The position numbers and the translations under genes are program-made. From an uncultured Thermoanaerobaculia bacterium (GTDB lineage Bacteria > Acidobacteriota > Thermoanaerobaculia > Multivoradales > JAGPDF01), in contig CAYYIK010000007.1 in assembly GCA_964471955.1 (NCBI GenBank), positions 2,729 to 66,728 of the forward strand: a stretch of DNA of 64,000 nt, written 5' to 3'. The first letter of the stretch is position 1. Every line of letters starts with the position of its first letter. The notes beneath the pieces were generated by a model. That model had not been told where the DNA came from, searched no databases, and saw only the letters and a list, made by a program, of their open reading frames with translations. This document shows positions 3,588 to 56,514 of this stretch, one piece after another.

Positions 3588-6155
3588 GTGGCTGATCCCG
3601 ATCGCGACGTCCCCGCAGCCGCGCCGAACGCGCGTCCGCTGCGCGTCGTCGGCACCCCCTTCCGCCGGGTCGACGGCTTCGCCAAGGTGACCGGACAGAC
3701 CCGCTACGCCGACGACCTGGACTTTCCGCGCACGGCGCACGTCAAGCTCGTGCGTTCGACGATCCCCCACGGGCGCATCCGCTCCATCGACCTCGAGGAG
3801 GCCGCGAGGCTCCCCGGCGTCCTCGGTTTTCTCACCGGACGCGACCTGCCGACCACCTTCGGCATCCTGCCGGTGTCACAGGACGAGCACCCGCTGGCGC
3901 TCGACCGGGTACGCCACGTCGGCGACCCGGTGGTCGCCGTCGCCGCGACGAGCGAGGACGCCGCCCACGCGGCGGCGCTGGCGGTGAAGGTCGACTACGA
4001 GCCGCTGCCGACCATCGCCACGGTCGAAGAGGCGATCGCGACGCCCGAGCCGCAGCTGCACGAGTACGCCGACCAGGGGAATCTGCACAAGGTCGTGTCG
4101 ATGGAGTTCGGCGACGTCGAGGCCGGCTTCGCCGCCGCCGATCGGGTTTTCGAGGACGTCTTCTTCTACGACGGAAACACCCATCTGCCGCTCGAGCAGC
4201 ACGCCACGGTGGCGCTGCCCGAGGGGGACGACCGGATCACCGTCTGGTCGTCGACCCAGACGCCGCACTACCTGCATCGCGCCCTGACCCGCGTGCTCGG
4301 CCTGCCGGCGTCGCGCATCCGCGTCGTCGCGACCCCCAACGGCGGCGGCTTCGGCGGCAAGAGCGACCCGTTCGGCCACGAGATCGTCTGCGCCGCGATG
4401 GCGCGCAAGCTCGGCCGTCCGGCGCGCATCGCGCTCACCCGCGAGGAGGTCTTCTACTGCCATCGCGGCCGCCACCCGGTGCTGATGCGCCTCAGGACGG
4501 GCGTCTCGAAGGACGGGGCGCTCACCGCGCAGACCCTGCAGACGACCCTCGACGGCGGCGCCTACGGCAGCTACGGCGTCGCGTCGACCTACTACACCGG
4601 GGCGCTCGAGACGGTCACCTACCGGCTGCCGAACTACAAGTTCGAGTCGATCCGCGCCTTCACCAACAAGCCGGCCTGCGGCCCCAAGCGCGGCCACGGC
4701 ACCCCCCAGCCACGCTTCGGCTTCGAGGTGCAGCTCGACAAGATCGCCGTGGCGACCGGGCGCAATCCGGCCGACCTGCGGCTCGCCGTCGTCGAGCAAC
4801 CGGAGACCATCACCGCCAACTGGCTCAAGCTCGGCACCATCGAGCTGGCGCGCTGCATCGAGGCGGTGGTCGCCGGGTCGGGCTACCGCGAGCGCTGGGG
4901 CAGGCTGCCGCGCGGGCGCGGCCTCGGACTCGCCTGCGGCTCCTATCTTTGCGGCGCCGGCCTGCCGATCTACTGGAACCACATGCCGCAGTCGGGCGTG
5001 GCGATCCACGTCGACCGCGGCGGCGGCGTCGCGGTCTTCTGCGGCGAGACCGAGATCGGCCAGGGGTCGGACTCGGTGCTCGCCGCAGTGGTGGCCGAAG
5101 TCCTGGGCGTCGAGATCGCCGACCTGCGGCTCCAGGTCGCCGACACCGCCTTCACCCCGGTCGACCTCGGCAGCTACTCTTCGCGCGTCACCCTGATGAT
5201 GGGGCAGGCGGCGCGCGACGCTGCGGAGAAGGTGCGCGCCACGATCGCCGAGGCGGTCGCGCGGCAGCTCGAGGTCGCCCCCGACCGGCTCGTCTTCGCC
5301 GACCGCCGCGTCTTCGACGCCGCCGATCCCGGGCGCGGCCTCACCTGGGAGGAGGCGGTGATCGCCGCCGAGGCCCGCTTCGGAACGATCGCCACGGCCG
5401 GCAGCTACACCCCTCCCCGCTCGCCCGGCAAGTACCGCGGCGCCGGCGTCGGCCCCTCCCCCACCTACTCCTACTCCGCCGCCGTCGTCGAGGTCGAGGT
5501 CGACGAGCACACCGGCATCTGGCGCCCGCTGCACGTCTGGGTGGCGCACGACATCGGCCGCGCCCTCAACCCGGCACTGGTCATGGGTCAGGTCGAGGGG
5601 GGCGTCTACATGGGTCTCGGCGAAGCGATGATGGAGGAGTCTGCCTTCCGCCGCCTGCCCAGGGCGCGCTCGCAGGCGCTGGTGCACAAGTTCCCCAGCC
5701 TCCTCGAGTACAAGAGCCTGACCTTCGAGGAGATGCCGCCGGTGACCACCTACCTGATCGAAGAGCCCGATCCGGCCGGCCCCTTCGGCGCCAAGGAGGT
5801 CGGCCAGGGGCCGCTGCTCCCCCTGCCGCCCGCCTGCGCCAACGCCATCTTCGACGCCGTCGGCGTGCGCGTCGACCAGGTGCCGATCCACCCGCACATG
5901 GTGCTCAAGGCGCTCGAAGCGAAGGCGAAGGGGAGCGAGCCCCGCTACGGCCCGGCGACCTTCCCCGAGGTCGACTTCGGCTTCACCCTGCAGGTGCCGA
6001 CTCCCTGGGAGGGGGGCGACGGCAGGGCGTCGAACGAAGAGGAGTTCAAAGCGGCCACCGGGCGCAAGTCCCGCGCCGGGACGATGACCGAGCGCAGCGA
6101 AGCGCTGCGCTCGGGAAGCGTCGCAGCCCTGACGACGAAGCTGAAGGAATCGTGA
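3588..6155 (+). CDS. molybdopterin-binding large subunit of xanthine dehydrogenase family enzyme (CoxL-like, form-II-type)
   Basis: 855 aa; N-terminal RVDGFAKVTGQTRYADD aldehyde oxidase/xanthine dehydrogenase a/b hammerhead motif; GKYRGAGVG (5433-5447) resembles the form II AYRGAGR signature rather than form I AYXCSFR. Confidence 0.9.
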   Translation: MADPDRDVPAAAPNARPLRVVGTPFRRVDGFAKVTGQTRYADDLDFPRTAHVKLVRSTIPHGRIRSIDLEEAARLPGVLGFLTGRDLPTTFGILPVSQDEHPLALDRVRHVGDPVVAVAATSEDAAHAAALAVKVDYEPLPTIATVEEAIATPEPQLHEYADQGNLHKVVSMEFGDVEAGFAAADRVFEDVFFYDGNTHLPLEQHATVALPEGDDRITVWSSTQTPHYLHRALTRVLGLPASRIRVVATPNGGGFGGKSDPFGHEIVCAAMARKLGRPARIALTREEVFYCHRGRHPVLMRLRTGVSKDGALTAQTLQTTLDGGAYGSYGVASTYYTGALETVTYRLPNYKFESIRAFTNKPACGPKRGHGTPQPRFGFEVQLDKIAVATGRNPADLRLAVVEQPETITANWLKLGTIELARCIEAVVAGSGYRERWGRLPRGRGLGLACGSYLCGAGLPIYWNHMPQSGVAIHVDRGGGVAVFCGETEIGQGSDSVLAAVVAEVLGVEIADLRLQVADTAFTPVDLGSYSSRVTLMMGQAARDAAEKVRATIAEAVARQLEVAPDRLVFADRRVFDAADPGRGLTWEEAVIAAEARFGTIATAGSYTPPRSPGKYRGAGVGPSPTYSYSAAVVEVEVDEHTGIWRPLHVWVAHDIGRALNPALVMGQVEGGVYMGLGEAMMEESAFRRLPRARSQALVHKFPSLLEYKSLTFEEMPPVTTYLIEEPDPAGPFGAKEVGQGPLLPLPPACANAIFDAVGVRVDQVPIHPHMVLKALEAKAKGSEPRYGPATFPEVDFGFTLQVPTPWEGGDGRASNEEEFKAATGRKSRAGTMTERSEALRSGSVAALTTKLKES

Positions 6156-6560
6156 AGAGATCGTGAAGAGGAAAGAAGCAAAGGCCTTTTTGTTCAAGAC
6201 AAAGGCAAAGGCAGAAGCTTCCATAGAAGGGAAAAGAGGGGACTGGGGCGTGGGCTGGGCGGGTGAGTCGATTGCGGCGGGCCAGAAGCCGGGTGAAGCC
6301 TGGATTCCTTTCTCCGATGCCGAGGGCGAGGGGGCCGGGAAAGTTTCCCGGCAGGGAAGCTCGAAGGCCCCATCACCTGAGCGGTGGGCCGGCACTCCCG
6401 GTTCAGATCGGGGCCTGAGCGCAGGAGCGCACCCGCCGTCGTTGCCGGCACTCGTGCGCGCCGGTTCCCGGCCGGGGAACTTTCCCGGCCCCCTCGCTTC
6501 CACCTCCCGCTGAACGAGGACGAACATGTCCAGAACCAGGAAGTCCGAGAGGAAGCACCG

Positions 6561-7571
6561 ATGCTGAGAATGCCGGGGTTCCGGCTGCTGCGCCCCGAGA
6601 GTCTGGCGGAGGCGGCGGCCATGCTGGCGGGCGAGGGCGAGGGGGCGCGGCTGGTCGCCGGCGGGACCGACCTCTTCCCCAACCTCAAGCGCCGCCACCA
6701 GAAGGCGACGGCCGTCATCTCGCTCGCCCGCGCCGCGCGACGCGATCCGGCCCTCGCCGCGGTGTCGGTCGGGCCCGGTCCCGTCGGCGACTTGCGGCTC
6801 GGTCCGATGGCCCGCCTGTCGGCCATCGAGCGCGATCCGCGCGTGCGGGCCGGCTGGCCGGCGCTCGCCCGGGCGGTGGCGTCGATCTCCTCGCCGGTGC
6901 TGCGCAACATGGGGACGATCGGCGGCAACGTCTGCCTCGACACCCGCTGCACCTACTACAACCAGAACGAGGAGTGGCGGCGGTCGATCTCCTACTGCAT
7001 GAAGGCCGAGGGGAAGGTCTGCTGGGTCGCGCCCTCGTCGCCGCGCTGCTGGGCGGTGCAGAGCGCCGACTCGGTGCCGATGCTCATCGCGCTCGGTGCC
7101 CGCGTCCGTCTTCTCTCGGCCGCCGGCGAGCGCGAAGTGCCACTCGAGGCGCTCTACCGCGACGACGGGATGGACTACCTGACCCTGAGCCCCGGCGAGA
7201 TCGTCACCGGCATCGCGGTCCCCGCCGCATCCGCGGCCTCCCGGCTGCGCACCGCCTTCTTCAAGCTGCGCCGCCGCGGCTCGATCGACTTCGGCGTCCT
7301 GTCGGTCGCCGTCGCGCTGCGGCTCGAGGCGGATGTCGTCGCCGATGCGAAGATCGTCCTCGGCTCGATCGCGTCGTTCCCCTCCCCCGCCGCTGACGCC
7401 GCCGCCGAGCTCGTCGGCAAGCCGCTCACCGAGGAGACGATCCGCGCCGCCGCCGCGAAAACACGCACGGCCGCGACGCCGATGGACAACACCGACCTCG
7501 ACCCGCGCTGGCGCGGCCAGGTGACGCCGGTGTACGTCGAGCGCACCCTGCGCGAGGCGGCCGGTCTCTGA
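6561..7571 (+). CDS. FAD-binding medium subunit of molybdenum hydroxylase (CoxM-like)
   Basis: ATG at 6561 preceded by GAGAGGAAG; LVAGGTDLFPNLKRR FAD-binding motif of CO dehydrogenase flavoprotein family; the upstream part of the 6384 frame is a GC-rich extension. Confidence 0.85.
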   Translation: MLRMPGFRLLRPESLAEAAAMLAGEGEGARLVAGGTDLFPNLKRRHQKATAVISLARAARRDPALAAVSVGPGPVGDLRLGPMARLSAIERDPRVRAGWPALARAVASISSPVLRNMGTIGGNVCLDTRCTYYNQNEEWRRSISYCMKAEGKVCWVAPSSPRCWAVQSADSVPMLIALGARVRLLSAAGEREVPLEALYRDDGMDYLTLSPGEIVTGIAVPAASAASRLRTAFFKLRRRGSIDFGVLSVAVALRLEADVVADAKIVLGSIASFPSPAADAAAELVGKPLTEETIRAAAAKTRTAATPMDNTDLDPRWRGQVTPVYVERTLREAAGL

Positions 7572-39765: not shown

Positions 39766-41189
39766 TCCAGCAGCGCCACCGCATCACCGCGGCGGTCCTC
39801 TTCGCGGGGGACGTCGTCGCAACGCTGGCCGCCTTCTTCGGCGCCTGGCTCCTCCGTTTCGAAGTCGAACTCGTTCCGCTGACCAAGAGCACGCCGGAGC
39901 TCGGCCGCTACGTCGAGCTGCTGCCGATCATCCTGCTGCTCTTCCCGCTGGTCTTCTACTTCCTCGGCCTCTACCGGCCGCGGCCGAGCGCCAGCCGGGT
40001 CGAGGAGGCGGTGGCCGTCCTCTCGGCGGTGCTGCTGGCGACCATCCTGCTGTCGGGCGTCGTCTCCTGGTACCGGCCGGCGCTGCGCCCCGGCAGCATC
40101 GAGTACTTCACCTACAGCCGCGCCTTCCTCGCCCTCTTCGCGGTGGTCCAGGTGGCGATGGTGGTGCTCGGCCGGGCCGCGGTGCGCTGGTTGCTGCACA
40201 GCGCCAGCGTCCACGCCGGCAGCGCGCAGCGCATCCTGGTGGTCGGCGCCGGCAAGCTCGGCCTCGAGATCACCTCCAAGCTGCTCGCCCACCGCGACCA
40301 CGGCCTCGAGGTCGTCGGCTTCCTCGACGACGACCCCAACAAGCTCGGCCGGCAGATTCTCGGCCGACCGGTGCTCGGCATGACGCGCGACGTCGAACGC
40401 GTCCTCGCCGAGCAGAAGATCGACCAGCTCTTCGTCGCCCTCCCCCTCGAAGCCCACAAGAAGATGATGCGCCTGCTGCAGGCGGTGGGCAGCGAGTGCG
40501 TCGAAGTCAAGCTCGTCCCCGACATCCTGCAGTACGCGACGATCAAGGCGACGCTCGAGGAGATCGACGGCACGCCGGTGATCAACCTCTCGCAGCTGCC
40601 GCTGCAGGGCTGGAACAGCCTGGTCAAGCGGCTGCTCGACGTCGTCCTGTCGGCCGCCGGCCTGGTGGTGCTGCTCCCGTTCTTCCCGCTGCTGGCGCTG
40701 ATCATCTGGCTCGACGACCGCGGCCCGATCTTCTACCGCCAGGAGCGCATGGGCCTCGACGGCCGCCCCTTCTGGATCTGGAAGTTCCGCTCGATGCGAG
40801 TCAACGCCGAGGCCTCCACCGGGCCGATCTGGGCCATCCAGGGGGATCCGCGGCGCACCGTCGTCGGCGGCGTGCTGCGCCGCTGGTCGATCGACGAGCT
40901 GCCGCAGCTGTGGAATGTGCTGCGCGGCGACATGTCGCTGGTCGGTCCCCGCCCCGAGCGCCCGACCTTCGTCCAGGAGTTCAAGCAGCGCCTGCCGCAG
41001 TACATGCTGCGTCACAAGGTCAAGGCCGGAATCACCGGCTGGGCCCAGGTGCACGGCTGGCGCGGCAACACCTCGATCCGCAAGCGGCTCGAGTACGACC
41101 TCTACTACATCGAGAACTGGTCGCTGGGGCTGGATCTGAAGATCCTCTGGATGACGCTCCGGCACGGCCTGCGCCACAACGCCCACTGA
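39762..41189 (+). CDS. undecaprenyl-phosphate sugar phosphotransferase (WbaP/EpsB-type priming glycosyltransferase)
   Basis: TTG overlapping the previous stop (TTGA); N-terminal TM helices; C-terminal bacterial sugar transferase domain GPIFYRQERMGLDGRPFWIWKFRSM...DELPQLWNVLRGDMSLVGPRP. Confidence 0.85.
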   Translation: MIQQRHRITAAVLFAGDVVATLAAFFGAWLLRFEVELVPLTKSTPELGRYVELLPIILLLFPLVFYFLGLYRPRPSASRVEEAVAVLSAVLLATILLSGVVSWYRPALRPGSIEYFTYSRAFLALFAVVQVAMVVLGRAAVRWLLHSASVHAGSAQRILVVGAGKLGLEITSKLLAHRDHGLEVVGFLDDDPNKLGRQILGRPVLGMTRDVERVLAEQKIDQLFVALPLEAHKKMMRLLQAVGSECVEVKLVPDILQYATIKATLEEIDGTPVINLSQLPLQGWNSLVKRLLDVVLSAAGLVVLLPFFPLLALIIWLDDRGPIFYRQERMGLDGRPFWIWKFRSMRVNAEASTGPIWAIQGDPRRTVVGGVLRRWSIDELPQLWNVLRGDMSLVGPRPERPTFVQEFKQRLPQYMLRHKVKAGITGWAQVHGWRGNTSIRKRLEYDLYYIENWSLGLDLKILWMTLRHGLRHNAH

Positions 41190-42694
41190 TGACCGACCAT
41201 CGCTTCGAGCCGCGGGCGCCCGCCGCCCGCCCGGCCATCGCCTCGTTCGCCGTCTTCGCCCTGGCCATGCTCGCCGCCGCCGGATGCCGCCGGCCCGAGG
41301 CTCCGGCCGCGGCCTCCACCGCCGCGACCCCGACGACGCCGCCGAACATCCTGCTGATCACCGTCGACACGCTGCGCGCCGACCATCTGTCGGCCTGGGG
41401 CTATCCCCGTCCCACCTCGCCGCGCCTCGACCAGCTCGCCGCCGAAGGGGCGCGCTTCGCGGCCGCCCAGGTACAGTGGCCCAAGACGGGGCCCTCCTTC
41501 GCCTCCATGTTCACCTCGACCTACCCGAAGGACAACGGCAACGTCCGCCAGGTCGGCATCCCGCTCCCCTGCGAGTTCACCACCCTCGCGGAACGCCTGC
41601 AGCGGGCCGGCTGGGCGACGCGCGCCGTGGTGGCCAACGGCGCGCTGGCGCGCGAGTTCAACTTCGACCAGGGGTTCGACGCCTACGTCGAGGCGTGGCA
41701 GAACCCGCACCCCGGGGGCGGCGATCCGATTCGCGCCGAGAACGTCACCCGCCTGGCGCTCGAGAACGCGGCCGAGTTGCCCGCCGACCGTCCATGGTTT
41801 CTCTGGGTGCACTACATCGATCCACACTTCCCCTATCGCGCCCCGGACGCCTGGCGCGACCGGTTCCAGGGGGACGAGCACTTCCGCGACGAGCCGCGCA
41901 TTCGGGTGCTCGACAAGTATTCGCAACAGCTGGCCGGCATCGGCAAGCGGCAGACCCTCGACGGCGAGGATCGCCTCGCCTTCTACGTGGCGCGCTACGA
42001 CGCCGAGATCGCCTACGCCGACGAACAGATCGGCGTCCTGCTCGACCGCCTGCGCGAGACGGGGCGAATGGCCGACACGGTGACCGCCTTCACTTCCGAC
42101 CACGGCGAGTCGCTCGGCGACCACGAGTACTACTTCGATCACGGCCGATTCGCCTTCCAGACCTGCCTGCACGTGCCCCTCGTTCTGCACTGGCCGGGGC
42201 GGATCGCGCCGGTGGTGCGCGAGGAACCGGTCGCCCTGCTCGACCTGGCGCCGACGCTGCTCGCCGCCGCCGGGCTGCTCCCCGAGACGGGTGCCTGGGC
42301 GCAGGGAGAGAGTCTCTGGCCGGCGCTGCGCGGCGGCGAGCCGGGGCGCCCGATCGTCTTCGCGGAAGGGGGCACCGCGACGAAGCGCCAGTGGATCAAG
42401 ACGGCGCGCGACGGCCGCTTCAAGCTGCAGCACACCAATCAGGCGGGCGAGCAGCGCTGGATCGCCGGCAAGGGGGTCGACTACGCCCTCTTCGACCTCT
42501 CCGCCGATCCCGGCGAGACGCGCAACGTCGCCGCCGAGCACCCCGAGGAGCTGGCGCGCCTGCAGCGCGCCCTCGCCGAGTGGTGGCGGCAGCCGCCGTT
42601 CGACGTTCGCACCGACGAACGGACCGACTGCGCCGCCGGCCGCGCCGTCGAGGCCGGCACGACCGAGCAGCTCGAGGCTCTCGGCTATCTCTGA
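41189..42694 (+). CDS. sulfatase-family (alkaline phosphatase superfamily) lipoprotein, probably not a canonical formylglycine sulfatase
   Basis: ATG overlapping the WbaP stop (ATGA); lipobox AMLAAAGC; ILLITVDTLRADHLSAWGY; the canonical C/S-x-P-x-R position reads T-G-P-S-F. Confidence 0.8.
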   Translation: MTDHRFEPRAPAARPAIASFAVFALAMLAAAGCRRPEAPAAASTAATPTTPPNILLITVDTLRADHLSAWGYPRPTSPRLDQLAAEGARFAAAQVQWPKTGPSFASMFTSTYPKDNGNVRQVGIPLPCEFTTLAERLQRAGWATRAVVANGALAREFNFDQGFDAYVEAWQNPHPGGGDPIRAENVTRLALENAAELPADRPWFLWVHYIDPHFPYRAPDAWRDRFQGDEHFRDEPRIRVLDKYSQQLAGIGKRQTLDGEDRLAFYVARYDAEIAYADEQIGVLLDRLRETGRMADTVTAFTSDHGESLGDHEYYFDHGRFAFQTCLHVPLVLHWPGRIAPVVREEPVALLDLAPTLLAAAGLLPETGAWAQGESLWPALRGGEPGRPIVFAEGGTATKRQWIKTARDGRFKLQHTNQAGEQRWIAGKGVDYALFDLSADPGETRNVAAEHPEELARLQRALAEWWRQPPFDVRTDERTDCAAGRAVEAGTTEQLEALGYL

Positions 42695-42720
42695 GCCGGC
42701 GTCCTCTCCTTGGGTCTTCA

Positions 42721-43069
42721 CCGGTTCGAGTGGGTGATCCCTTGTCGGGGCGGGACGGCTGGGCGGAACGACGCGTCCGGTTCAAGAGTGCGGACACAAG
42801 CTTCCAAAGAATGGAATGACGGCTCCCGGTGGAGTCTGGATCGGGCGTGGCGGGCTCGAAGCGACCGGAGTCCACCCCCGCCGTCTGGCCCCACCGGTCG
42901 CTGGCCGACCCCTACTCTGGCTTTTCCCCTATCTGGAAGCTTGTGTCCCCGGGCGTACACCTTGCGTCGGCATCGACCAGTTCGAGTTTCGGTGCCTGTC
43001 CCCGAGATAGGAGTCTTGGTGCCTGTCCCCGAAATACCGCCTCGCGGTGGCGCCACCCACTCGAACCGG
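42721..43069. mobile_element. 349-bp MITE-like structured intergenic element bounded by perfect 16-bp terminal inverted repeats
   Basis: CCGGTTCGAGTGGGTG (42721-42736) and its exact reverse complement (43054-43069); nested inverted repeat GGACACAAGCTTCC (42792-42805 / 42935-42948); tandem GGTGCCTGTCCCCGA(G/A)ATA at ~42990-43034; no plausible ORF. Confidence 0.4.
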
Positions 43070-43085
43070 GGAAGCGTCCTCTCCT

Positions 43086-44762
43086 TCAGCTTTCGACGAG
43101 AGATACAGCCGGCTCGGACCCGCGACCCCGGCGCAGCGCCAGGACGGCGAGCAGCGCCGCCAGGCCGAGCAGCACGGCGGCCGAGAGGCCATTCCAGAAC
43201 CCGACCTCGCCGAGGGCGGCGCCGAGGTTCGCCCACGCCAGCGTGGCGAGCGCCCAGATGGTGATCGTGGCTACGAAGAGCAGCGGCAGCAGGGTGAACA
43301 GATAGGGGCGGCGCCGGCGGCGCAGCCAGATGGTGAGCACCAGCAGGGTGAGCGCCGCCAGCAGCTGGTTGCTGGCGCCGAACAGGGTCCAGAACTTCGT
43401 CCAGGCCCCCTGCCCGCCGGCGAGCACGAACCAGACCGCCGGCGCCACCGTGGCCAGGGTGGCGATCGCCGCGCCGGTCCTGCCGCGCCAGCCCGACAGC
43501 TCCTGCAGCAGATAGCGGCCGAGCCGCGTCGAGACGTCGAGGGTGTCGAAGACGAACGTCGAGAAGGCCATGGCCCCGAACGTCACCGCGAAGGCGAGGT
43601 GCTGCTCCCCCACGACGAGGGCGAGGAAGCGCCCGATGCCGTTGCCGTAGATCGTCCCGGGCGACAGTCCGGCGATCGCCTCGGGGGGCGCGATCATGAT
43701 CGTCACCAGGGCGATCAGCGCGACGAACCCTTCCGCCAGCATGGCGCCGAAGCCCACCGGCTGACAGTCGCTCTCGCGCGCGATCTGCTTCGAGGTCGTC
43801 CCCGAACAGACCAGGCCGTGAAAGCCCGAGCAGGCACCGCACGCGATGGTGACGAAGAGGAAGGGAAAGAGTCCCCCCGTCACGCCGCCGGCGTTCCAGG
43901 CACGGAAGAAGGGCTGCTCGATCGACCAGCCGCCCAGCAGCACGCCGATCACGCCGGTGGCGAGCGCGGTGTAGAGGACGAAGCCACCCAGGTAGCCGCG
44001 CGGCTGCAGCAGCGCCCAGACCGGCACGACCGAGCCGAGGGCGCAGTAGACGAGGATCAGCACCGCCCAGGTCGCGTGATCGAACTGCAGCCAGGTCGAC
44101 ATCCGGGTGCCGGCCCAGCAGGCGGCGAAGGTGGCGGGGACGAAGATCGCGGTGACCAGCCAGAGCGGCGGCGCCAGGAAACGCTGCACCAGGCCGAGCA
44201 GCAGCGACAGCCCGAGGTAGAGCACCGCCGCCGCGGCCACCGCGCCGCCGGCGTGGAAGCTCGTTCCGCCCTCGCGCAGCTCTTCGGTGCCGGCGACGAA
44301 GCTGCCCGCCGTGATGTCGGCGAAGGCGACGATCACGTAGACGAGGGCGATCCAGATGAACAGCATCATCGCCCGCCCGGCGAGCGGTCCGAGCTCGTGG
44401 CGGGTGATCTCGGCGATCGAGTCGCCGCCGTGGCGCACCGAGACGGCGAGCGCCGAGAAGTCGTGCACCGCGCCGATGAAGACGACGCCGAATGCGATCC
44501 AGGCGAGGCAGGGGCCCCAGCCGAACGCCTGGCAGGCGAGGATCGGCCCGGCGATCGGTCCGGCCGCGGCGATCGCCGAGAAGTGCTGCCCGAACAGGTA
44601 GAAGCGACGGGTGGGAACGAAGTCGACGCCGTCGCGTCGCGACACCGCGGGCGTGGCGCGGCCGTCGTCGAGGCGGAACTGGCGTGCCACCCAGCCGCCG
44701 TAGAAGTGGTAGGCGGCGGCCAGCAGGCCGAGCAGCGCGACGCTGAGCAGTGTGAGGGACAC
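43086..44762 (-). CDS. cstA: carbon starvation protein A family transporter
   Basis: N-terminus MSLTLLSVALLGLLAAAYHFYGGWVARQF and polytopic membrane profile typical of CstA. Confidence 0.85.
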   Translation of the reverse strand: MSLTLLSVALLGLLAAAYHFYGGWVARQFRLDDGRATPAVSRRDGVDFVPTRRFYLFGQHFSAIAAAGPIAGPILACQAFGWGPCLAWIAFGVVFIGAVHDFSALAVSVRHGGDSIAEITRHELGPLAGRAMMLFIWIALVYVIVAFADITAGSFVAGTEELREGGTSFHAGGAVAAAAVLYLGLSLLLGLVQRFLAPPLWLVTAIFVPATFAACWAGTRMSTWLQFDHATWAVLILVYCALGSVVPVWALLQPRGYLGGFVLYTALATGVIGVLLGGWSIEQPFFRAWNAGGVTGGLFPFLFVTIACGACSGFHGLVCSGTTSKQIARESDCQPVGFGAMLAEGFVALIALVTIMIAPPEAIAGLSPGTIYGNGIGRFLALVVGEQHLAFAVTFGAMAFSTFVFDTLDVSTRLGRYLLQELSGWRGRTGAAIATLATVAPAVWFVLAGGQGAWTKFWTLFGASNQLLAALTLLVLTIWLRRRRRPYLFTLLPLLFVATITIWALATLAWANLGAALGEVGFWNGLSAAVLLGLAALLAVLALRRGRGSEPAVSLVES

Positions 44763-44836
44763 TCGGGCGCGGATCCTACGCCGAGTCGGCGCGCGCTGGG
44801 GCGCCGGCCGCGTGCTAGCATCCGCGGACTTCGCCG

Positions 44837-49787: not shown

Positions 49788-50309
49788 TCAGGTCCGCGGC
49801 GGGAAGACGCCCTGCAAGGCGATCGCGAAGTAGCACGTCAGGTACGGCTGCATGTTGTTGTGCGGCTGGTCGCCGCCGCCAGGAGCCAGGGCCTGGTCCG
49901 ACGCGCTCGCGTTCGGAGACGCCTGATACAGAGCTCCTCCGCCGGAGAGTGCGAAGGACGCAGAGGCGCTCGCAACATTGGTGTCGGCCAGGTCGACGAC
50001 GTTGGCGCGCAGAGTGTGGGAATGCGCGGGAATCTCCGATTGAAGGAGCGAAACCGTCTCGCTGCCTCCCGTCTCCCCCAGGTCGTGCAGGGACAATCCC
50101 GGGCCTTGTCCCGGCTGCATCGGTGCGCGACCCTGAAGGTCCGGCAGTGCGAAGTTGCTCTTGCCGTTGCCTCCGTATGTCGTGCCGAGCAGCGAAAAGA
50201 GCGCCGTATTCTGCGACAGGGGAAGAAGCTGCCCGTCGCACCACGCCCAGCCCTTCGGGGCGAAGTTGAACGGGAAGATCCGGATCTCAGCGACGAAGGG
50301 ATCTGCCAT
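49788..50309 (-). CDS. phage tail collar domain protein (MdpB-like), paralog 1
   Basis: MADPFVAEIRIFPFNFAPKGWAWCDGQLLPLSQNTALFSLLGTTYGGNGKSNFALPDLQGRAP matches the tail-collar family signature. Confidence 0.85.
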   Translation of the reverse strand: MADPFVAEIRIFPFNFAPKGWAWCDGQLLPLSQNTALFSLLGTTYGGNGKSNFALPDLQGRAPMQPGQGPGLSLHDLGETGGSETVSLLQSEIPAHSHTLRANVVDLADTNVASASASFALSGGGALYQASPNASASDQALAPGGGDQPHNNMQPYLTCYFAIALQGVFPPRT

Positions 50310-50321
50310 GACGTCTCACTC

Positions 50322-50825
50322 TCAGGCCGGGCTCGGGAAGATTCCGAACAACGAAATGATGAAATTGACGCAGAGATAGGGCTGGAAGTTCGTGTGCGGC
50401 TGGCTGCCGCCCGTCGACCCGATCGCCGCAGCATTCATGTTTCCGCTCGGAGCGTCGTTGATGTACGGGGTGACGTTGAAGGAGTTCGCCGGGAGATTGC
50501 CCGAAGCGTTGATCTGGTCCCCGGTAACTCCGGCGGCGAGCAGCGGATGGCCGTGCGCCGGAATCTGCTGAATCGTGAGCGTGATCTCCTCCGCGCCTCC
50601 GGTCTCCGCGAGGATGAATCCGCTCCCCTGATGAATCGGAATCCGCCCGCGCAGGTCGGGCAGCGCGAAGGTGGACTGCCCGTCGCCTCCGTAGGTGGTG
50701 CCGATCAACTGGAACAACGTCTCGTTCTCCGAGATCGGCAGCAGCTGACCCTCGCACAGCATCCAGCCTGCCGGCGCGAAGTTTCCGCCGAACATCCGGA
50801 TCTCTCCAACGTAAGGTTGCGCCAC
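50322..50825 (-). CDS. phage tail collar domain protein, paralog 2
   Basis: MAQPYVGEIRMFGGNFAPAGWMLCEGQLLPISENETLFQLIGTTYGGDGQSTFALPDLRGRIP. Confidence 0.85.
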   Translation of the reverse strand: MAQPYVGEIRMFGGNFAPAGWMLCEGQLLPISENETLFQLIGTTYGGDGQSTFALPDLRGRIPIHQGSGFILAETGGAEEITLTIQQIPAHGHPLLAAGVTGDQINASGNLPANSFNVTPYINDAPSGNMNAAAIGSTGGSQPHTNFQPYLCVNFIISLFGIFPSPA

Positions 50826-50835
50826 GACGGCCTCC

Positions 50836-51336
50836 TCAGTTCGGGCTCGGGAAAATGCCCTGGAGGGCGATACAGAAGCTGATCGTGAGGAACGGCTGCA
50901 TGTTCAGATGCGCCTGGCTTCCTCCGACGGCGGTCACGGTGGCGGAGCTCATGGCGACCAGGGATGCCGGCGCGTGGTAAGCGTTGTTGGCCCCTCCGAG
51001 GACCCTTCCCGCCGGATTCACGTTGCCGCCGGTCGAGGCCGAGGAGACCGCCAGCACATGCACGTGTTGCGGCATCTCCGCGATCGACAAGGTGTGGGCC
51101 TGCTCTCCCCCGCGCTCACCGAGCGTGTGCGCCGATCCGACGTGAATCGGGGCGCGCCCGCGCAGGTCGGGCAGCGCGAAATTGACGCGGCCGTCGCCGC
51201 CGAAGGTCGTTCCCAGGAGAGAAAACAGGGCCTGGTTCTGATTGATCGGCAACAGCTGGCCGTTGCAGAGGGCCCAACCCTTGGGAGCGAACTGGAAGCT
51301 GAACAGTCGAACTTCGCTCAGGAACGGTTCGGCCAT
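50836..51336 (-). CDS. phage tail collar domain protein, paralog 3
   Basis: MAEPFLSEVRLFSFQFAPKGWALCNGQLLPINQNQALFSLLGTTFGGDGRVNFALPDLRGRAP; RBS GAGAGGAAG upstream. Confidence 0.85.
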   Translation of the reverse strand: MAEPFLSEVRLFSFQFAPKGWALCNGQLLPINQNQALFSLLGTTFGGDGRVNFALPDLRGRAPIHVGSAHTLGERGGEQAHTLSIAEMPQHVHVLAVSSASTGGNVNPAGRVLGGANNAYHAPASLVAMSSATVTAVGGSQAHLNMQPFLTISFCIALQGIFPSPN

Positions 51337-51372: not shown

Positions 51373-54300
51373 TCACGGCAGCGGGCAGGCAGCGCCGCCC
51401 GGGGTATTGACGAAACCGCCGCCCGTAGGCACGGTATTCGACGCGATCGCCGAGGGCACTCCGTCTCCCGAGTTCCGCGCGATCAGGTAGTTCTGGACCG
51501 CGGTGTTGTCGTTGTTGGCGCCCGCGTATCCGCGCAGCGCAACGGTCGTCGCCTGCCGCTGGCGGAGTCGGATGTCTTCGCCTCCCGCCGGAATGTCGCT
51601 GGGCGCGCCCGCGGTCGAAACCGAGTTCTGGAGAGCCCCGGCTCCGCCCGCGTCGAGGCAGATCTGGTAGGTGTCTCCGGGCACTGTGCCGGCGTTCAGG
51701 TGAATCCCGTTCTTCGGGATCGAAGCGGTGGCCGGATTGGTACCCGGAAGCGTGATCAGATTGCCCGTGATCGTGGCGTTCAGGGCGCCGGGCTGCGCCG
51801 TCGCCCCGCCGCCAGTCAGCAGCTCGATGCCGAAGTTGTTGTACCAGCGGATCGTGTTGCCGCTGATCAGCGCGTCGATCGCCCCCTGGCCGACGCTCTG
51901 GATTTTGAGCGCCGATCCCTCCAGCGATCCGGAGTTGGGCGTCGCGGCCGCGCCGATCGTATTTCCCTGGAACGTCAGATCGAGGCTGCCCACGCCGGTC
52001 GGCTTGACGATCAACACCGCCGGCCCGACCGCGTCGCGGAAGCTGTTGTTCTGAACGACGAACGTGTCCGAGCTCGTGGCGCCGGCGAAGAAGGAAACTC
52101 CACCGCCGCCCGTCGCGATTCCGCCGTGGTTGTTGCTCAGCGTATTGCCCGTGAAGGCGAAGGTGAAGGCGCCGTTCGAGTTGTTGTTGACCTGGATCAG
52201 GTCGCCACGGGCGGACGTGAAGGCTCCATTCTGGACGGTGACGTTCATCGTCGCGCCAGCCGAACCGAGAGTCTCGAAGTAGGCCCCGTCGTTGCCGTCG
52301 GACAGGCTGTTGGCGCCGATCGTGACCCCGGAGAGAGTCACCGTGAGCGCTCCAGCGGTGTTGACGATCCTGAGATTGTCTTCGAAACCGCCGCTCACGT
52401 TGCAGTTCGTGAAGGTCGCCGTACCGGTCAGCTCGCTGAACCGGATACTCCCCTCGTCCGCCGCGGCGCTGTTGCCGTTGACGCCGTTGACGACGCTGTT
52501 GTCGAGGTTGAAACCCGTGACGGAAGCGCCGCGAATCGCGAAGTCGCCGAAGTCGTCGAGCTGCATCCAGGAGAACGACGGGTTCAGCGTGCTGGTGAGC
52601 GAGATACCGGTGCTCGTCGCGTTCCGAATCGTGCCGCCGGTCGCGGCCGAGCCCGTTCCGGAGACGATGAGCCTGCCTGCACCTCCCGTCGCATTGAGGA
52701 TCAGGCCGTTGGCCGGATCAGCAGCGGCCGTCGCATTTCCCGAGCTGATCGACCGGAAGCTCAGGTTCGAGGTCCCGATCGGCGTGCTGGTCACCCGCAA
52801 TGCGGTCGCGCTGACCGAGTCGATGGTGTTGATTCCGGTGATGTTCAAACCGAGCGCGTTGGTGTTGCTGGTCGCCGCGAAGCCCTCGCCGGTGGTGGTG
52901 TCGATGTCGAGTCCGCCGCTGAAGGTGATCGCCCGGCTGCCGGCGTTGCCGTTGAGCAGGATGCCGGCGCCGTTCTCGTCGACGGCGCCCGAGAGCAGCA
53001 AGTCGTCGCTCGCGTCGTCTCCGGCCCAGGTCGTGATCGAGACGGCTCGCGCCGTCGCCGAGTTGTTGGTGATCGTCCCGGCGTAGTTGATGCGGCCGTT
53101 GCCACCGCTGACGTTGAAAGCGGGTCCGGCCGCTCCCGCCGCGGTCGTGATCGTGCTGCCGGCGCCGGCGGTGAACTGGGCGTCGAAAGCCGGATTGATC
53201 GCGTCGAGCACCGTCGCCAGCGAGACGCCCGTCGTCGTCGTGTTCGTGCTCCGAATCGTGGTCAGCGGCAGCGAGGCGGTCAGGTTGGAAAGGTCGACCG
53301 CCGGACCGCCCGTCGCTTCCGCCATCCCCACGCCCGCGCCCACCGACACGCGCGTACCCGTTCCCGCACCGACGTTCACGGCGCCGGTGCCGCTGACGCG
53401 GATCGCGGCGCCGTTGTCGGCGAAGACGTCGAGGTCGGTGAAGGCGAGGTCGCCCGAGACGTTGGTCAGAACCAGACCGCTCGCGCCGACGCCGTTGCCC
53501 GGCGCGCCGACCACCGTGGCGCCGCCCGCGACCTGCTGATAGGCGCCTCCCGGCGTGGCGTCGAGCGTCAACGGACCCGTGAGCACCAGGCCCGAGCCGC
53601 CGGTGTTGCCGGAGACCACGTTGTCGTCGAAGGCCGTGACCTGAACGGTGCCGTTGGTCCTCGCCACGTCGAGGCCGGTGCCGCCGGCGGTGATGCTGTT
53701 GTCGTGGATCGAGAGCGTCAGCGTCCCGGTGCCGCCGGCGTTGACGTCGATCCCCTCGGCACCGGAGGCACGCACGGTGTTGTTCGCGATCGTCAAAGCG
53801 CCCGACCCGCCGAAGGCGCCGGTGAGCGTGACGTCGACGGCGTTCGCGTTGCCGGCCAGATTCAGGCCGACGATCTCGGTCGGGATCAGATCGGTGGCCA
53901 TCACCGCGCTGCCGCCGACCGTGGTGTTGTCGAGCATCGGCCGGGTACCCGGTGCGATCAGCACGACGGGCGAGGCACCGCCGTTCAGCACGACCGGGAT
54001 CGAGAGCCCCGCCCCTTCGCCCACCAGATGCTGACCCGCCTTGAGCGTGATGCCGGCGTTCTGCCCGGTGGTGGCGCCGTCGCCGTTGTAGACGAAGATC
54101 CAGTCGTTGGCACCCGAGGCGGTCTGCGCTTCGACCAGGGTGTCGAATGGATCGATCGAACGTCCGAGACCGCCGGCGGTCGCGTCGTTGCGGACGTACC
54201 AGACCCGCTGGAGGAACGAAATCGTCACCGTGCCCTGGACGCTCACGTCGCCGTCGGAGACGTTGTACGTGAAGCTGTCGTCGACCGTTCGCCCGGCCGG

Positions 54301-56514
54301 CGACGTGTAGCTGAACGTGCCGTCCGAGGCGACCGCGACCACCGCGCCGGCGGTCGCCGTACCGAGCGACGTGGTCAACGCCGCCGGGCCGTCCGGATCG
54401 CTGTCGTTGGCGAGCAGGTTCCCCGCCGCGAAGACGTAGGGACCGTTCGCGTCCGGCCCGGGATCGATTGCCGCGACCCGCAGCCGGGTGTTCGAAATCG
54501 TCTGGAACGACTCGCCGGTGATCACCGGAGGATCGTTGACCGGCGTAACGGTGACGCTCTTCGACGCCGTGTTGCTCGGATCGGCGCCGTCGTTCGCGAC
54601 GAAGGTGACGAGGCGGTCCGGCAGGGCCGTCGGGCTCTGGGAAGCGTTGGCGTAGAGGACCGAGCGCAGGCAGCCCTGGTAGACCGCGACCGTCGCCGTT
54701 CCCGAGATCGCCAGCGCGTGGCCCGGCGCGGAGACGACGAGGCCCGGGCAGGTTGTGCCCGGCGCAGCGACCGAGAGCGCCTCCTGGCCGCCGTTCTGCG
54801 GATTCGTCAGCGACACGATCGCCGAGACGAGATCCGCGTCGTCGGCGTCGGTGACGTTCAGCGCACCGTCGACCACCACCGCGCCGGCGTCTTCGACGAA
54901 CGAGGTCGCGCCGCCGCTGGTTGTGACCACCGGTACATCGTTGACCGCGGTGATCTCGACCGTCGACGTCGCGGCGGCGCTCGACTCGACGCCGTCGCTC
55001 GCGCTCCAGGTTACCGTGCGGTCGGACGGGTCGGGATCCTCCGAGCTGTTCTCGTAGGCGACCGAGCGCAGCGCCGCCTGCCAGGCAGCGACGGTATCGA
55101 GTCCGTTCAGGGCGAGGGTGCCGGTCGCCGGCGCGAAGACGCCGGTGATGCTGGGCGTGTTCGTGAACGACAGGACGTCTTCCCCGCTCTGGAAGTTGCC
55201 GGTGATCTGCACCGTCGCCGAGACCAGATTGGCGCTGTCGACGTCGCTGACCGTGAGCGCGGCGTCGACCGCGGTCGGCGGATCGTTCTCGGTGTAGGCG
55301 AGCGTGCCGCCGGCGACGACGACCGGCGGCGCGCGGTCGATCACGATCCGGGCGCGGGCCGTGGCCGGGCCGATCGGCGCGCCCGAGGCGTCCACCGTCG
55401 GGTCTCCCGCCGCCGCGGCGATCGTGTAGGCGAAGTCGTCGACGCCGTTGAAGCCGGCCGGCGGCGTGTAGACGAAGTGCCCGTCGGCGGCGACGTCGAC
55501 GCTGCCCCCCTGGCTGGTTGCCTGCCCCGCCGCCGGCACCGCGGCGAGCGAGTCGCCGTCCGGATCGGTGTCGTTGCCGAGCAGCGCGGGCAGCGCCGCC
55601 GTCGAGCTGTCGATCGGCTGGTCGGTGACCGTCCGGTAGACGTCGGGTCGTGCCAGCGGCGTCGTGCGCACCGAACCGGCGACCAGCGCCAGATTGGAGT
55701 CGAGGATGTCCGCGAGCTCGACGCCCGTGGCGCCGCCACCGGCGTTCGAGATCGTGATCCGGTAGCGAATGGTGTCTCCCGGCACGACCGCGCCGGGAAT
55801 CGGATCCCCGGCCGGCGTGCGGTCGACCTTGAGCGCCGCGAGTTCGGGAGCCGCCGTGCGCAGCTCCGAGAGCATCAGCGCCGGCGTCGCTTCCCCCGAC
55901 TCGACGCGAAGGACGATCGCGCCCACCGCGGAGAGATCCGCCGGCGTCGCCGCGCCGGGCGCCTGCGCCAGGCTCGAGAAGTCGACGAAGATGTCGACGG
56001 GAGCCGCGATCGCCGGCAGGACCAGGGCGCCGCGCGACACCGAATCGGCGTCCTCGTAGATCTCGAGCACCAGGGAGGTGCCCGCCGCCGCCGCGTCGAT
56101 GGTGAAACGGAAGGCGCCCGCGCCGCCGGCGGTCAGGTCGACGCCGCCCAGCCCGGCCGGGTCGATCGCGTCGGGGTCGCTGTCGCCGTCCCAGATCACG
56201 AAGACCGCACCGCGCGAGTCGGGCGTGGTCGCGGTGACGCCGACGTCCAGCGCGCCGCCCGCCACGCCGGCGGTGACCGGCCCCGCTCCGGCGAAGCGTT
56301 GCACCCGCAGTCCGCGGTTCTGACCGAGGATGTCGGCGCCGCCGGTGACCGCGTTGCTGGCGCCGCCGGGCGGATCCGAGATCACGGTCTGGTTGGTCGT
56401 GAACTGATCGACGACGACCTGGCCGGCGACCGGTGCGGCGGCCAGGACCAGTCCGGCGACGAGTGCGGCGAGCGCGGCGGGCCGTCGCGGCGAGGGTCTC
56501 ATGGCGCCTCTCAT
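51373..56514 (-). CDS. giant (1713 aa) secreted protein: N-terminal DUF11-like and cadherin-like/VCBS-type domains followed by extensive right-handed parallel beta-helix repeats
   Basis: ATG overlapping the upstream DUF11 gene stop (ATGA); signal peptide MRGAMRPSPRRPAALAALVAGLVLAAAPVAG; repeated ...VNDVPVV/VNDPPVI... cadherin-like boundaries; long G/T/N/A-rich beta-helix region. Confidence 0.8.
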   Translation of the reverse strand: MRGAMRPSPRRPAALAALVAGLVLAAAPVAGQVVVDQFTTNQTVISDPPGGASNAVTGGADILGQNRGLRVQRFAGAGPVTAGVAGGALDVGVTATTPDSRGAVFVIWDGDSDPDAIDPAGLGGVDLTAGGAGAFRFTIDAAAAGTSLVLEIYEDADSVSRGALVLPAIAAPVDIFVDFSSLAQAPGAATPADLSAVGAIVLRVESGEATPALMLSELRTAAPELAALKVDRTPAGDPIPGAVVPGDTIRYRITISNAGGGATGVELADILDSNLALVAGSVRTTPLARPDVYRTVTDQPIDSSTAALPALLGNDTDPDGDSLAAVPAAGQATSQGGSVDVAADGHFVYTPPAGFNGVDDFAYTIAAAAGDPTVDASGAPIGPATARARIVIDRAPPVVVAGGTLAYTENDPPTAVDAALTVSDVDSANLVSATVQITGNFQSGEDVLSFTNTPSITGVFAPATGTLALNGLDTVAAWQAALRSVAYENSSEDPDPSDRTVTWSASDGVESSAAATSTVEITAVNDVPVVTTSGGATSFVEDAGAVVVDGALNVTDADDADLVSAIVSLTNPQNGGQEALSVAAPGTTCPGLVVSAPGHALAISGTATVAVYQGCLRSVLYANASQSPTALPDRLVTFVANDGADPSNTASKSVTVTPVNDPPVITGESFQTISNTRLRVAAIDPGPDANGPYVFAAGNLLANDSDPDGPAALTTSLGTATAGAVVAVASDGTFSYTSPAGRTVDDSFTYNVSDGDVSVQGTVTISFLQRVWYVRNDATAGGLGRSIDPFDTLVEAQTASGANDWIFVYNGDGATTGQNAGITLKAGQHLVGEGAGLSIPVVLNGGASPVVLIAPGTRPMLDNTTVGGSAVMATDLIPTEIVGLNLAGNANAVDVTLTGAFGGSGALTIANNTVRASGAEGIDVNAGGTGTLTLSIHDNSITAGGTGLDVARTNGTVQVTAFDDNVVSGNTGGSGLVLTGPLTLDATPGGAYQQVAGGATVVGAPGNGVGASGLVLTNVSGDLAFTDLDVFADNGAAIRVSGTGAVNVGAGTGTRVSVGAGVGMAEATGGPAVDLSNLTASLPLTTIRSTNTTTTGVSLATVLDAINPAFDAQFTAGAGSTITTAAGAAGPAFNVSGGNGRINYAGTITNNSATARAVSITTWAGDDASDDLLLSGAVDENGAGILLNGNAGSRAITFSGGLDIDTTTGEGFAATSNTNALGLNITGINTIDSVSATALRVTSTPIGTSNLSFRSISSGNATAAADPANGLILNATGGAGRLIVSGTGSAATGGTIRNATSTGISLTSTLNPSFSWMQLDDFGDFAIRGASVTGFNLDNSVVNGVNGNSAAADEGSIRFSELTGTATFTNCNVSGGFEDNLRIVNTAGALTVTLSGVTIGANSLSDGNDGAYFETLGSAGATMNVTVQNGAFTSARGDLIQVNNNSNGAFTFAFTGNTLSNNHGGIATGGGGVSFFAGATSSDTFVVQNNSFRDAVGPAVLIVKPTGVGSLDLTFQGNTIGAAATPNSGSLEGSALKIQSVGQGAIDALISGNTIRWYNNFGIELLTGGGATAQPGALNATITGNLITLPGTNPATASIPKNGIHLNAGTVPGDTYQICLDAGGAGALQNSVSTAGAPSDIPAGGEDIRLRQRQATTVALRGYAGANNDNTAVQNYLIARNSGDGVPSAIASNTVPTGGGFVNTPGGAACPLP

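Follow-up and report, generated by a model that had tools for sequence, protein, structure and literature searches.

A small inserted element lies between a sulfatase-family gene and cstA in the 64-kb stretch of DNA analysed here, which is referred to below as the window. It spans positions 42712-43073, that is, 362 bp between duplicated 13-mers. The most probable explanation, to which we assign a probability of about 0.75, is that it is a non-autonomous, MITE-like transposon with terminal inverted repeats (TIRs). Comparison with relatives shows that the insertion took place in a recent ancestor of the strain, at a point where 16 bp separated the stop codon of cstA from that of the sulfatase gene. 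The element encodes nothing. It is ordinary mobile-DNA debris: no coding sequence was changed, and nothing points to a new mechanism. It does, however, provide a clean, dated case of a small TIR element in a 16-bp gap between convergent genes, in an uncultured lineage of Acidobacteriota.

The element, its borders and its immediate neighbours are listed here in order along the window, with contigs from relatives designated by L numbers.

41189-42694, plus strand: sulfatase-family gene (Pfam PF00884), with its 3' end toward the element; also called as a gene in L012
42699-42711, no strand: left copy of the target-site duplication, GCGTCCTCTCCTT, a perfect direct repeat beginning 4 nt past the sulfatase stop codon
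42712-43073, no strand: inserted element, non-coding, 65.5% GC; absent from L001-L005, L173 and L174, present in L012 and L013
42717-42736, plus strand: left TIR, TTCACCGGTTCGAGTGGGTG, with a perfect 16-nt core at 42721-42736
43054-43073, minus strand: right TIR, reading CACCCACTCGAACCGGGGAA on the plus strand and abutting the right duplication copy
43074-43086, no strand: right copy of the target-site duplication, GCGTCCTCTCCTT, which shares its final base with the cstA stop codon (the first base of TCA on the plus strand)
43086-44762, minus strand: cstA, encoding carbon starvation protein A (Pfam PF02554, E = 9e-124), with its 3' end toward the element

The 13-bp direct repeat, located with a repeat finder, is perfect and sits directly outside the element on both sides. 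A first-pass annotation of this DNA had missed it and had drawn the element as 349 bp long; the true boundaries are 42712 and 43073. The perfect 16-bp TIR described in that annotation was accurately placed, as the core CCGGTTCGAGTGGGTG (42721-42736) is exactly complementary to positions 43054-43069. Extending the repeat to 20 nt (42717-42736 and 43054-43073) brings in a single mismatch, leaving 19 of 20 positions matched, and extending it to 38 nt gives 76% complementarity in the repeat finder. Five unmatched nucleotides, GGGTC (42712-42716), lie outside the left TIR. A duplication shorter than 13 bp would need several bases at the element's ends to match the target by coincidence. The repeats of the element stand out from background. 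Perfect inverted repeats of at least 16 bp, spaced by no more than 600 bp, occur just twice in the 64-kb window: one is the TIR of the element, the other an unrelated pair at 6326 and 6478.

That unrelated pair belongs to a gap of about 400 bp (6156-6562) between the genes for a xanthine-dehydrogenase-like molybdenum subunit and a FAD-binding subunit. The gap holds an A/G-rich stretch of low GC (6156-6260) and an inverted repeat (6326-6358 and 6465-6497) of 33 nt with 94% complementarity, 20 bp of it perfect, around a 106-nt loop. It has no Rfam match at the gathering score. A 15-bp direct repeat, CGAGGGCGAGGGGGC, occurs at 6321 and again at 6632, where the second copy falls within a coding region. 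The structure could be a leader or other regulatory structure, or another small insertion.

Both reading frames that flank the element are intact despite the insertion, with the cstA stop codon appearing as TCA on the plus strand (43086-43088). The first-pass placement between the 3' ends of a sulfatase-like gene and cstA was therefore sound, since the two genes are convergent and carry PF00884 and PF02554, respectively. By its CstA homologues, the organism belongs with uncultured Acidobacteriota; its closest named relatives are Thermoanaerobaculia and Holophagales MAGs at 74-75% identity. The domains of the roughly 45 open reading frames in the window are ordinary chromosomal ones, including fatty-acid synthesis, ETF-QO, xanthine-dehydrogenase-like subunits, glycosyltransferases, and peptidases, and no transposase or integrase domains were found among them.

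Elsewhere in the window, three tandem paralogous genes of 166-173 aa lie on the minus strand at 49788-51336, as read from L012 (3439-4987). A phage tail-collar domain (PF07484) is present in each of the three. Immediately upstream is a gene for a 1713-aa protein with cadherin-like/Big_9 repeats (51373-56514, minus strand), and genes for a methyltransferase and an acetyltransferase come after them.

The history of the site can be read from other contigs that encode close relatives of CstA, whose junctions were compared with that of the window. Both empty and filled alleles are represented.

L001 (Logan SRR24881069), 98.8% nucleotide identity on both flanks: 16-bp gap, element absent
L002 (JGI), 93.5-94.9% nucleotide identity: 70-bp spacer, homologous to the L003 spacer, element absent
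L003-L005 (Logan), 91.7-93.2% nucleotide identity: 76-bp spacer, element absent
L173 (JGI), 80% CstA identity: 47-bp gap after cstA, element absent
L174 (ENA), 78% CstA identity: 12-bp gap after cstA, element absent
L012 (Logan SRR18230991), 99.77% nucleotide identity over 21.7 kb: site occupied by the element, which differs by one SNP and has both 13-mers beside it
L013 (Logan SRR14117730), 99.2% nucleotide identity: element at the same site, the contig stopping inside the element

A search for an empty site had been proposed in the first-pass annotation, and a clean one is present in L001. Its junction reads cstA-TGA-AGGAGCGGACGC-CGGC-TCA-sulfatase, with nothing else between the stop codons. 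This contig holds a single copy of the 13-mer, GCGTCCGCTCCTT, which differs by one base from that of the window. The presence of a single copy in the absence of the element indicates that the element is a derived insertion with a 13-bp target-site duplication, and, on the strength of this alignment, the direct repeat is that duplication. A region conserved in synteny for a regulatory role, the case that would have told against insertion, is contradicted by the absence of the element from all seven contigs L001-L005, L173, and L174. Public metagenome assemblies include the site in both states, filled and empty, so that it is usable as a strain marker.

The junction at the 3' end of cstA varies across the lineage, with spacers of 16, 70, 76, 47, and 12 bp in L001, L002, L003, L173, and L174, respectively; in L174, cstA and the sulfatase gene are separated by a methyltransferase gene. 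The spacers of L002 and L003 were considered as footprints or solo ends of the element and rejected, as their best local alignments (Smith-Waterman) miss the element's ends. The score of the L002 spacer against the element is at the level of shuffled sequence, and that of the L003 spacer is only weakly above it; 6 and 37 of 500 shuffles reached these scores. A TIR-like string, GTTCGAGGTGGGCG, is seen in L002.

Two further observations concern the filled contigs. The end of L013 corresponds to window position 42951, just before an arm of the internal inverted repeat, and may result from low coverage or from a graph break at a repeat. Over 21.7 kb, the window and L012 differ in 51 alignment columns (45 mismatches and 4 gaps by blastn), 48 of which fall in three patches at 42592-42688, 44747-44797, and 53281-53425. 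Two of these patches bracket the block formed by the element and cstA, and the remaining three differences are isolated, one of them within the element (42884). In the patch at 42592-42688, L012 resembles the 92-95% relatives L002 and L003, while L001 agrees with the window. This pattern suggests short recombination tracts or a strain-mixture consensus in metagenome assemblies.

The clustering of differences near the element points to local recombination, and it is one of three observations that would suit an insertion made without any transposase. A foreign or ectopic fragment might have been captured through template switching during replication, through end joining, or by site-specific recombination with a 13-bp core, its TIR being incidental; the element is an orphan in all searches, and 13 bp is an unusual length for a duplication. 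We give this account very little credence. A perfect 16-bp inverted repeat (19/20 when extended) at the ends of the segment, beside a duplication, is the signature of a transposase and is very unlikely to arise by chance. Its end motif also recurs inside the segment, and no integrase or recombinase gene lies nearby among the approximately 45 open reading frames of the window.

The interior of the element contains several repeats.

42777-42786, plus strand: CCGGTTCAAG, a repeat of the TIR core motif inside the element, 56 nt inward of the left TIR core
42792-42816, no strand: internal inverted repeat, left arm (25 nt at 84%, including 14 bp that match perfectly)
42924-42948, no strand: internal inverted repeat, right arm
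42977-42986, plus strand: CCAGTTCGAG, another occurrence of the TIR core motif inside the element, in direct orientation and forming an 11-nt inverted repeat with the right TIR
42984-43036, no strand: subterminal tandem repeat of two 26-nt units, with a period of 27 and 88% identity

Most of these repeats had been noticed in the first-pass annotation, with some differences in extent. The internal inverted repeat is perfect over 14 bp (42792-42805 and 42935-42948) as described, but the outward extension proposed for it is unconvincing, and the pairing instead runs inward to 25 nt. The distal GACGC/GCGTC pair offered as part of that extension does exist (42770-42774 and 42964-42968), yet it is parted from the arms by 17 and 15 unpaired nucleotides. 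A further inverted repeat, GCGACCGG (42861-42868) and CCGGTCGC (42894-42901), is present too, but at 8 bp it is meaningless alone. The partial third TIR copy near 42977 was recovered by the repeat finder, and the tandem repeat was likewise found where it had been reported. This tandem repeat is enclosed by the 11-nt inverted repeat that the TIR motif copy at 42977-42986 forms with the right TIR. Each of its units carries GGTGCCTGTCCCCGA, and the tandem repeat has a degenerate inverted counterpart near the left end of the element (42742-42753). Six occurrences of the end motif CCRGTTCRAG are present in the 64-kb window, four of them in the element, against an expectation of 0.93; this count is descriptive because the motif was derived from the element.

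Several other descriptions of this architecture were tried and set aside. The element is not a palindrome or foldback over its whole length, as its self-complementarity beyond the TIR and the one internal repeat scores 24, against 10 +/- 18 for shuffles. A nested MITE bounded by the internal repeat was rejected on inspection, which showed no flanking duplication there. An ISL3-like or Tn3-like left end (GGGTCTTC) was dismissed because the right end has no mirror copy of it.

Compositionally, the element stands apart from its surroundings. Its GC content of 65.5%, compared with 72.1% for the window, falls at the 4th percentile among 362-bp segments, in agreement with the lower GC noted at first pass. 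Codon-position GC is flat, at 0.62-0.68 in all six frames, whereas the flanking genes have GC3 values of 0.92-0.94. Although the region 42700-43085 is fully open in two of the six frames, a Pfam search of six frames at E<=10 gave no match, and no genes were called on the copy of the element in L012. The same results uphold the earlier statement that there is no credible open reading frame. A ybdD-like small gene downstream of cstA, or indeed any open reading frame, was rejected as a candidate for want of coding-like GC3, a Pfam match, or a homologue.

Tests for RNA features were also negative. Rfam 15 gave no match in the window at the gathering score, and the element remained empty at E<=10 when 42500-43300 was searched. 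ARAGORN detected no tRNA or tmRNA in the element, no sigma-70-like promoter was found in the element region, and there were no terminator-like sites (a stem with a U-tract) on either strand of 42400-43400. Folding is nevertheless more stable than in shuffled sequence, with z = -2.6 and -3.3 for RNA on the two strands and z = -3.7 with DNA parameters. Because the excess is similar on both strands and largest with DNA parameters, it fits repeats acting at the DNA level rather than a strand-specific RNA.

These results bear on the proposal that the element functions primarily as a structured RNA, or as a barrier to transcription in both directions, acquired as a cassette, in which the inverted repeats serve RNA folding. 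Long-range helices are predicted on both strands, and the element is placed exactly between two convergent stop codons with only 16 bp between them when it is missing. Even so, this proposal seems highly improbable. The symmetry of the fold excess and its preference for DNA parameters, the lack of any Rfam match at E<=10 or U-tract stem, and the lack of homologues in which covariation could be sought all weigh against it. Moreover, close relatives do with spacers of 12-76 bp, and the proposal leaves the 13-bp flanking duplication unexplained. The first-pass annotation had named a structured sRNA and a bidirectional terminator as its alternatives to a MITE; the former has no Rfam family and no strand preference in fold stability, and the latter has no U-tract terminator.

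Searches were made for further copies of the element and for a parent transposase. No second copy was found in the 64-kb window by blastn, and blastn of the element against plasmids and phages gave no match. Among 185,579 GTDB species genomes, a set that evidently lacks the source genome, the 20-mer TTCNCCGGTTCGAGTGGGTG has six single matches in unrelated taxa and contexts. These fit chance, because chance was estimated to give a handful. In JGI metagenomes, the 16-mer was found at no fewer than 120 loci (at least 120), with one exact match each; among the matches listed, none has extended similarity to the element, and apparent inverted pairs about 350 bp apart (L024/L058 and L029) lie inside long open reading frames. 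In IMG/VR, the 16-mer has 39 matches, about the number estimated for chance, each a single exact match with no extended similarity. The best of these, L168, lies inside a long open reading frame with repeated peptide motifs, which is taken to be a phage tape-measure-type gene.

Translated searches were similarly unproductive. Six stretches of the element, searched as degenerate 8-residue patterns and by tblastn in IMG/VR and JGI metagenomes, yielded no confirmed relative. A concatenated six-frame pseudo-protein, compared with 5.8 billion predicted proteins for spurious open reading frames on other copies, found none. In all, searches with exact ends of GTDB genomes, JGI metagenomes (among the matches listed), and IMG/VR revealed no cognate transposase and no related element bounded by these TIRs; the TIR scans were for exact matches, which diverged TIRs would escape. 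Two independent assemblies, the contig of the window and L012, span the element in contigs of 30-69 kb, and such read-through argues against many near-identical copies in the genome.

One of the six 20-mer matches lies on a contig of a Gemmatimonadaceae MAG (CAZWXD010000001.1, L009, positions 6033-6065), where it forms a compact hairpin, CCGGTTCGAGT-GGGTGATCAGCG-ACTCGAACC. The hairpin adjoins an apparent gene start, with a CAT triplet lying some 10 nt ahead of the match, and has a 9-bp stem as in the ends of the element. With no further similarity between the two sequences, the likeness is probably a coincidence.

The apparent single copy raises the question of whether the 362-bp unit was ever mobile in its own right. 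An autonomous insertion sequence could have inserted with a 13-bp duplication and then lost its transposase gene to an internal deletion, in which case no MITE family would exist. The TIR, the duplication, and the empty site fit this history equally, and it accounts for the failure to find sister copies. We nonetheless think it quite unlikely. No trace of a transposase frame survives, either in Pfam at E<=10 over six frames or in the flat codon-position GC, and no full-length relative with these ends appears in GTDB genomes or among the metagenome matches listed. The interior also has organised repeats of its own, unlike a random deletion junction. A non-autonomous TIR transposon remains our preferred reading. 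As for the original interpretation of the element as a MITE, transposon insertion is borne out by the 13-bp duplication and the empty site in L001, whereas membership of a family is not, as neither a second copy nor a transposase was found.

If the element is a non-autonomous transposon, its insertion would have depended on a transposase supplied in trans and able to recognise the inverted ends. Extra binding sites for it would then probably lie in the subterminal 27-bp tandem repeat and in both internal copies of the end motif. The target would have been cut with a stagger of 13 nt, gap repair generating the 13-bp duplication. Since then, the element appears to have become fixed in a sub-lineage and to have been inherited vertically, as suggested by its occurrence at the same site in three samples with one SNP.

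The insertion may also have altered the space in which the two genes converge. In the empty allele, there are 16 bp and no hairpin between the genes; with the element in place, either transcript would gain a structured loop of 320 nt closed by a 16-20-bp stem. Pairing of the ends and of the internal repeat would give any transcript that reads in from either side a long hairpin, and 3'-end stability or read-through could change as a result. Such a putative effect on convergent transcription is conceivable as a side effect, and not as the element's reason for existing. The two alleles constitute a natural experiment on how a 362-bp hairpin-forming spacer affects convergent transcription.

Named MITEs include Correia/NEMIS of Neisseria, RUP of Streptococcus, and Nezha of cyanobacteria. 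As a group, prokaryotic MITEs are 50-800 bp long, have TIRs of at least 10-15 bp, lack a transposase, and usually generate target duplications of 2-10 bp (PMC11602168). The element resembles them in its length of 362 bp, its TIR (16 bp perfect, 19/20), and its lack of coding capacity (PMC11602168). It also shares with them an intergenic site, a flanking target-site duplication recognisable against an empty site, and presence/absence polymorphism between close strains. In contrast, its duplication of 13 bp exceeds the usual 2-10 bp (PMC11602168), which suggests that MITE definitions bounded at 2-10 bp would overlook such elements. A further difference is that MITEs are, in practice, repeated families, whereas this element was found with neither a second copy nor a cognate insertion sequence.

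The ends of IS231 are known to mobilise transposase-less cassettes in trans (MIC231, in the IS231 subgroup). Within the IS4 family, the IS4 subgroup makes duplications of 10-13 bp, or about one helical turn, and is the only group to do so in Table 1 of PMC2266710; the 13-bp duplication of the element falls within this range. The family has a DDE transposase with a YREK motif, and the end signatures are -AATR--------WTW- for the IS4 subgroup and CAT... for IS231 and ISH8 (PMC2266710). These signatures are missing from the element, whose ends begin GGGTCTTCACCGG... and TTCCCCGG... Since the terminal sequences GGGTCTTCACCGGTTCGAGT and TTCCCCGGTTCGAGTGGGTG fail the -AATR--------WTW- signature of the IS4 subgroup, the element is not assigned to the IS4 family. 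A more speculative extension, which we regard as possible but unlikely, is that no earlier non-autonomous member has been seen of the transposon lineage to which it belongs, one as yet undescribed in Acidobacteriota (Thermoanaerobaculia/Holophagae-like), with a 13-nt stagger and ends unlike those of the IS4 group. Were this true, the combination of stagger and ends could explain why nothing similar has been catalogued.

Other systems resemble the element in single respects. IS21, Tn7, and Mu have multiple subterminal transposase-binding repeats and make duplications of 4-8 bp or 5 bp. The element is like them in that its terminal motif recurs internally (42777 and 42977) and a tandem repeat adjoins one end, but it differs in having no sequence resemblance to them and no associated genes. 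Casposons, which are driven by Cas1, combine TIRs with duplications of 14-15 bp, and the element similarly pairs TIRs with an unusually long target duplication. However, that duplication is 13 bp rather than 14-15 bp, neither cas1 nor polB was seen in the window, and we know of no miniature casposon derivative. Together with IS481, the casposons are the other long-duplication systems that offer leads.
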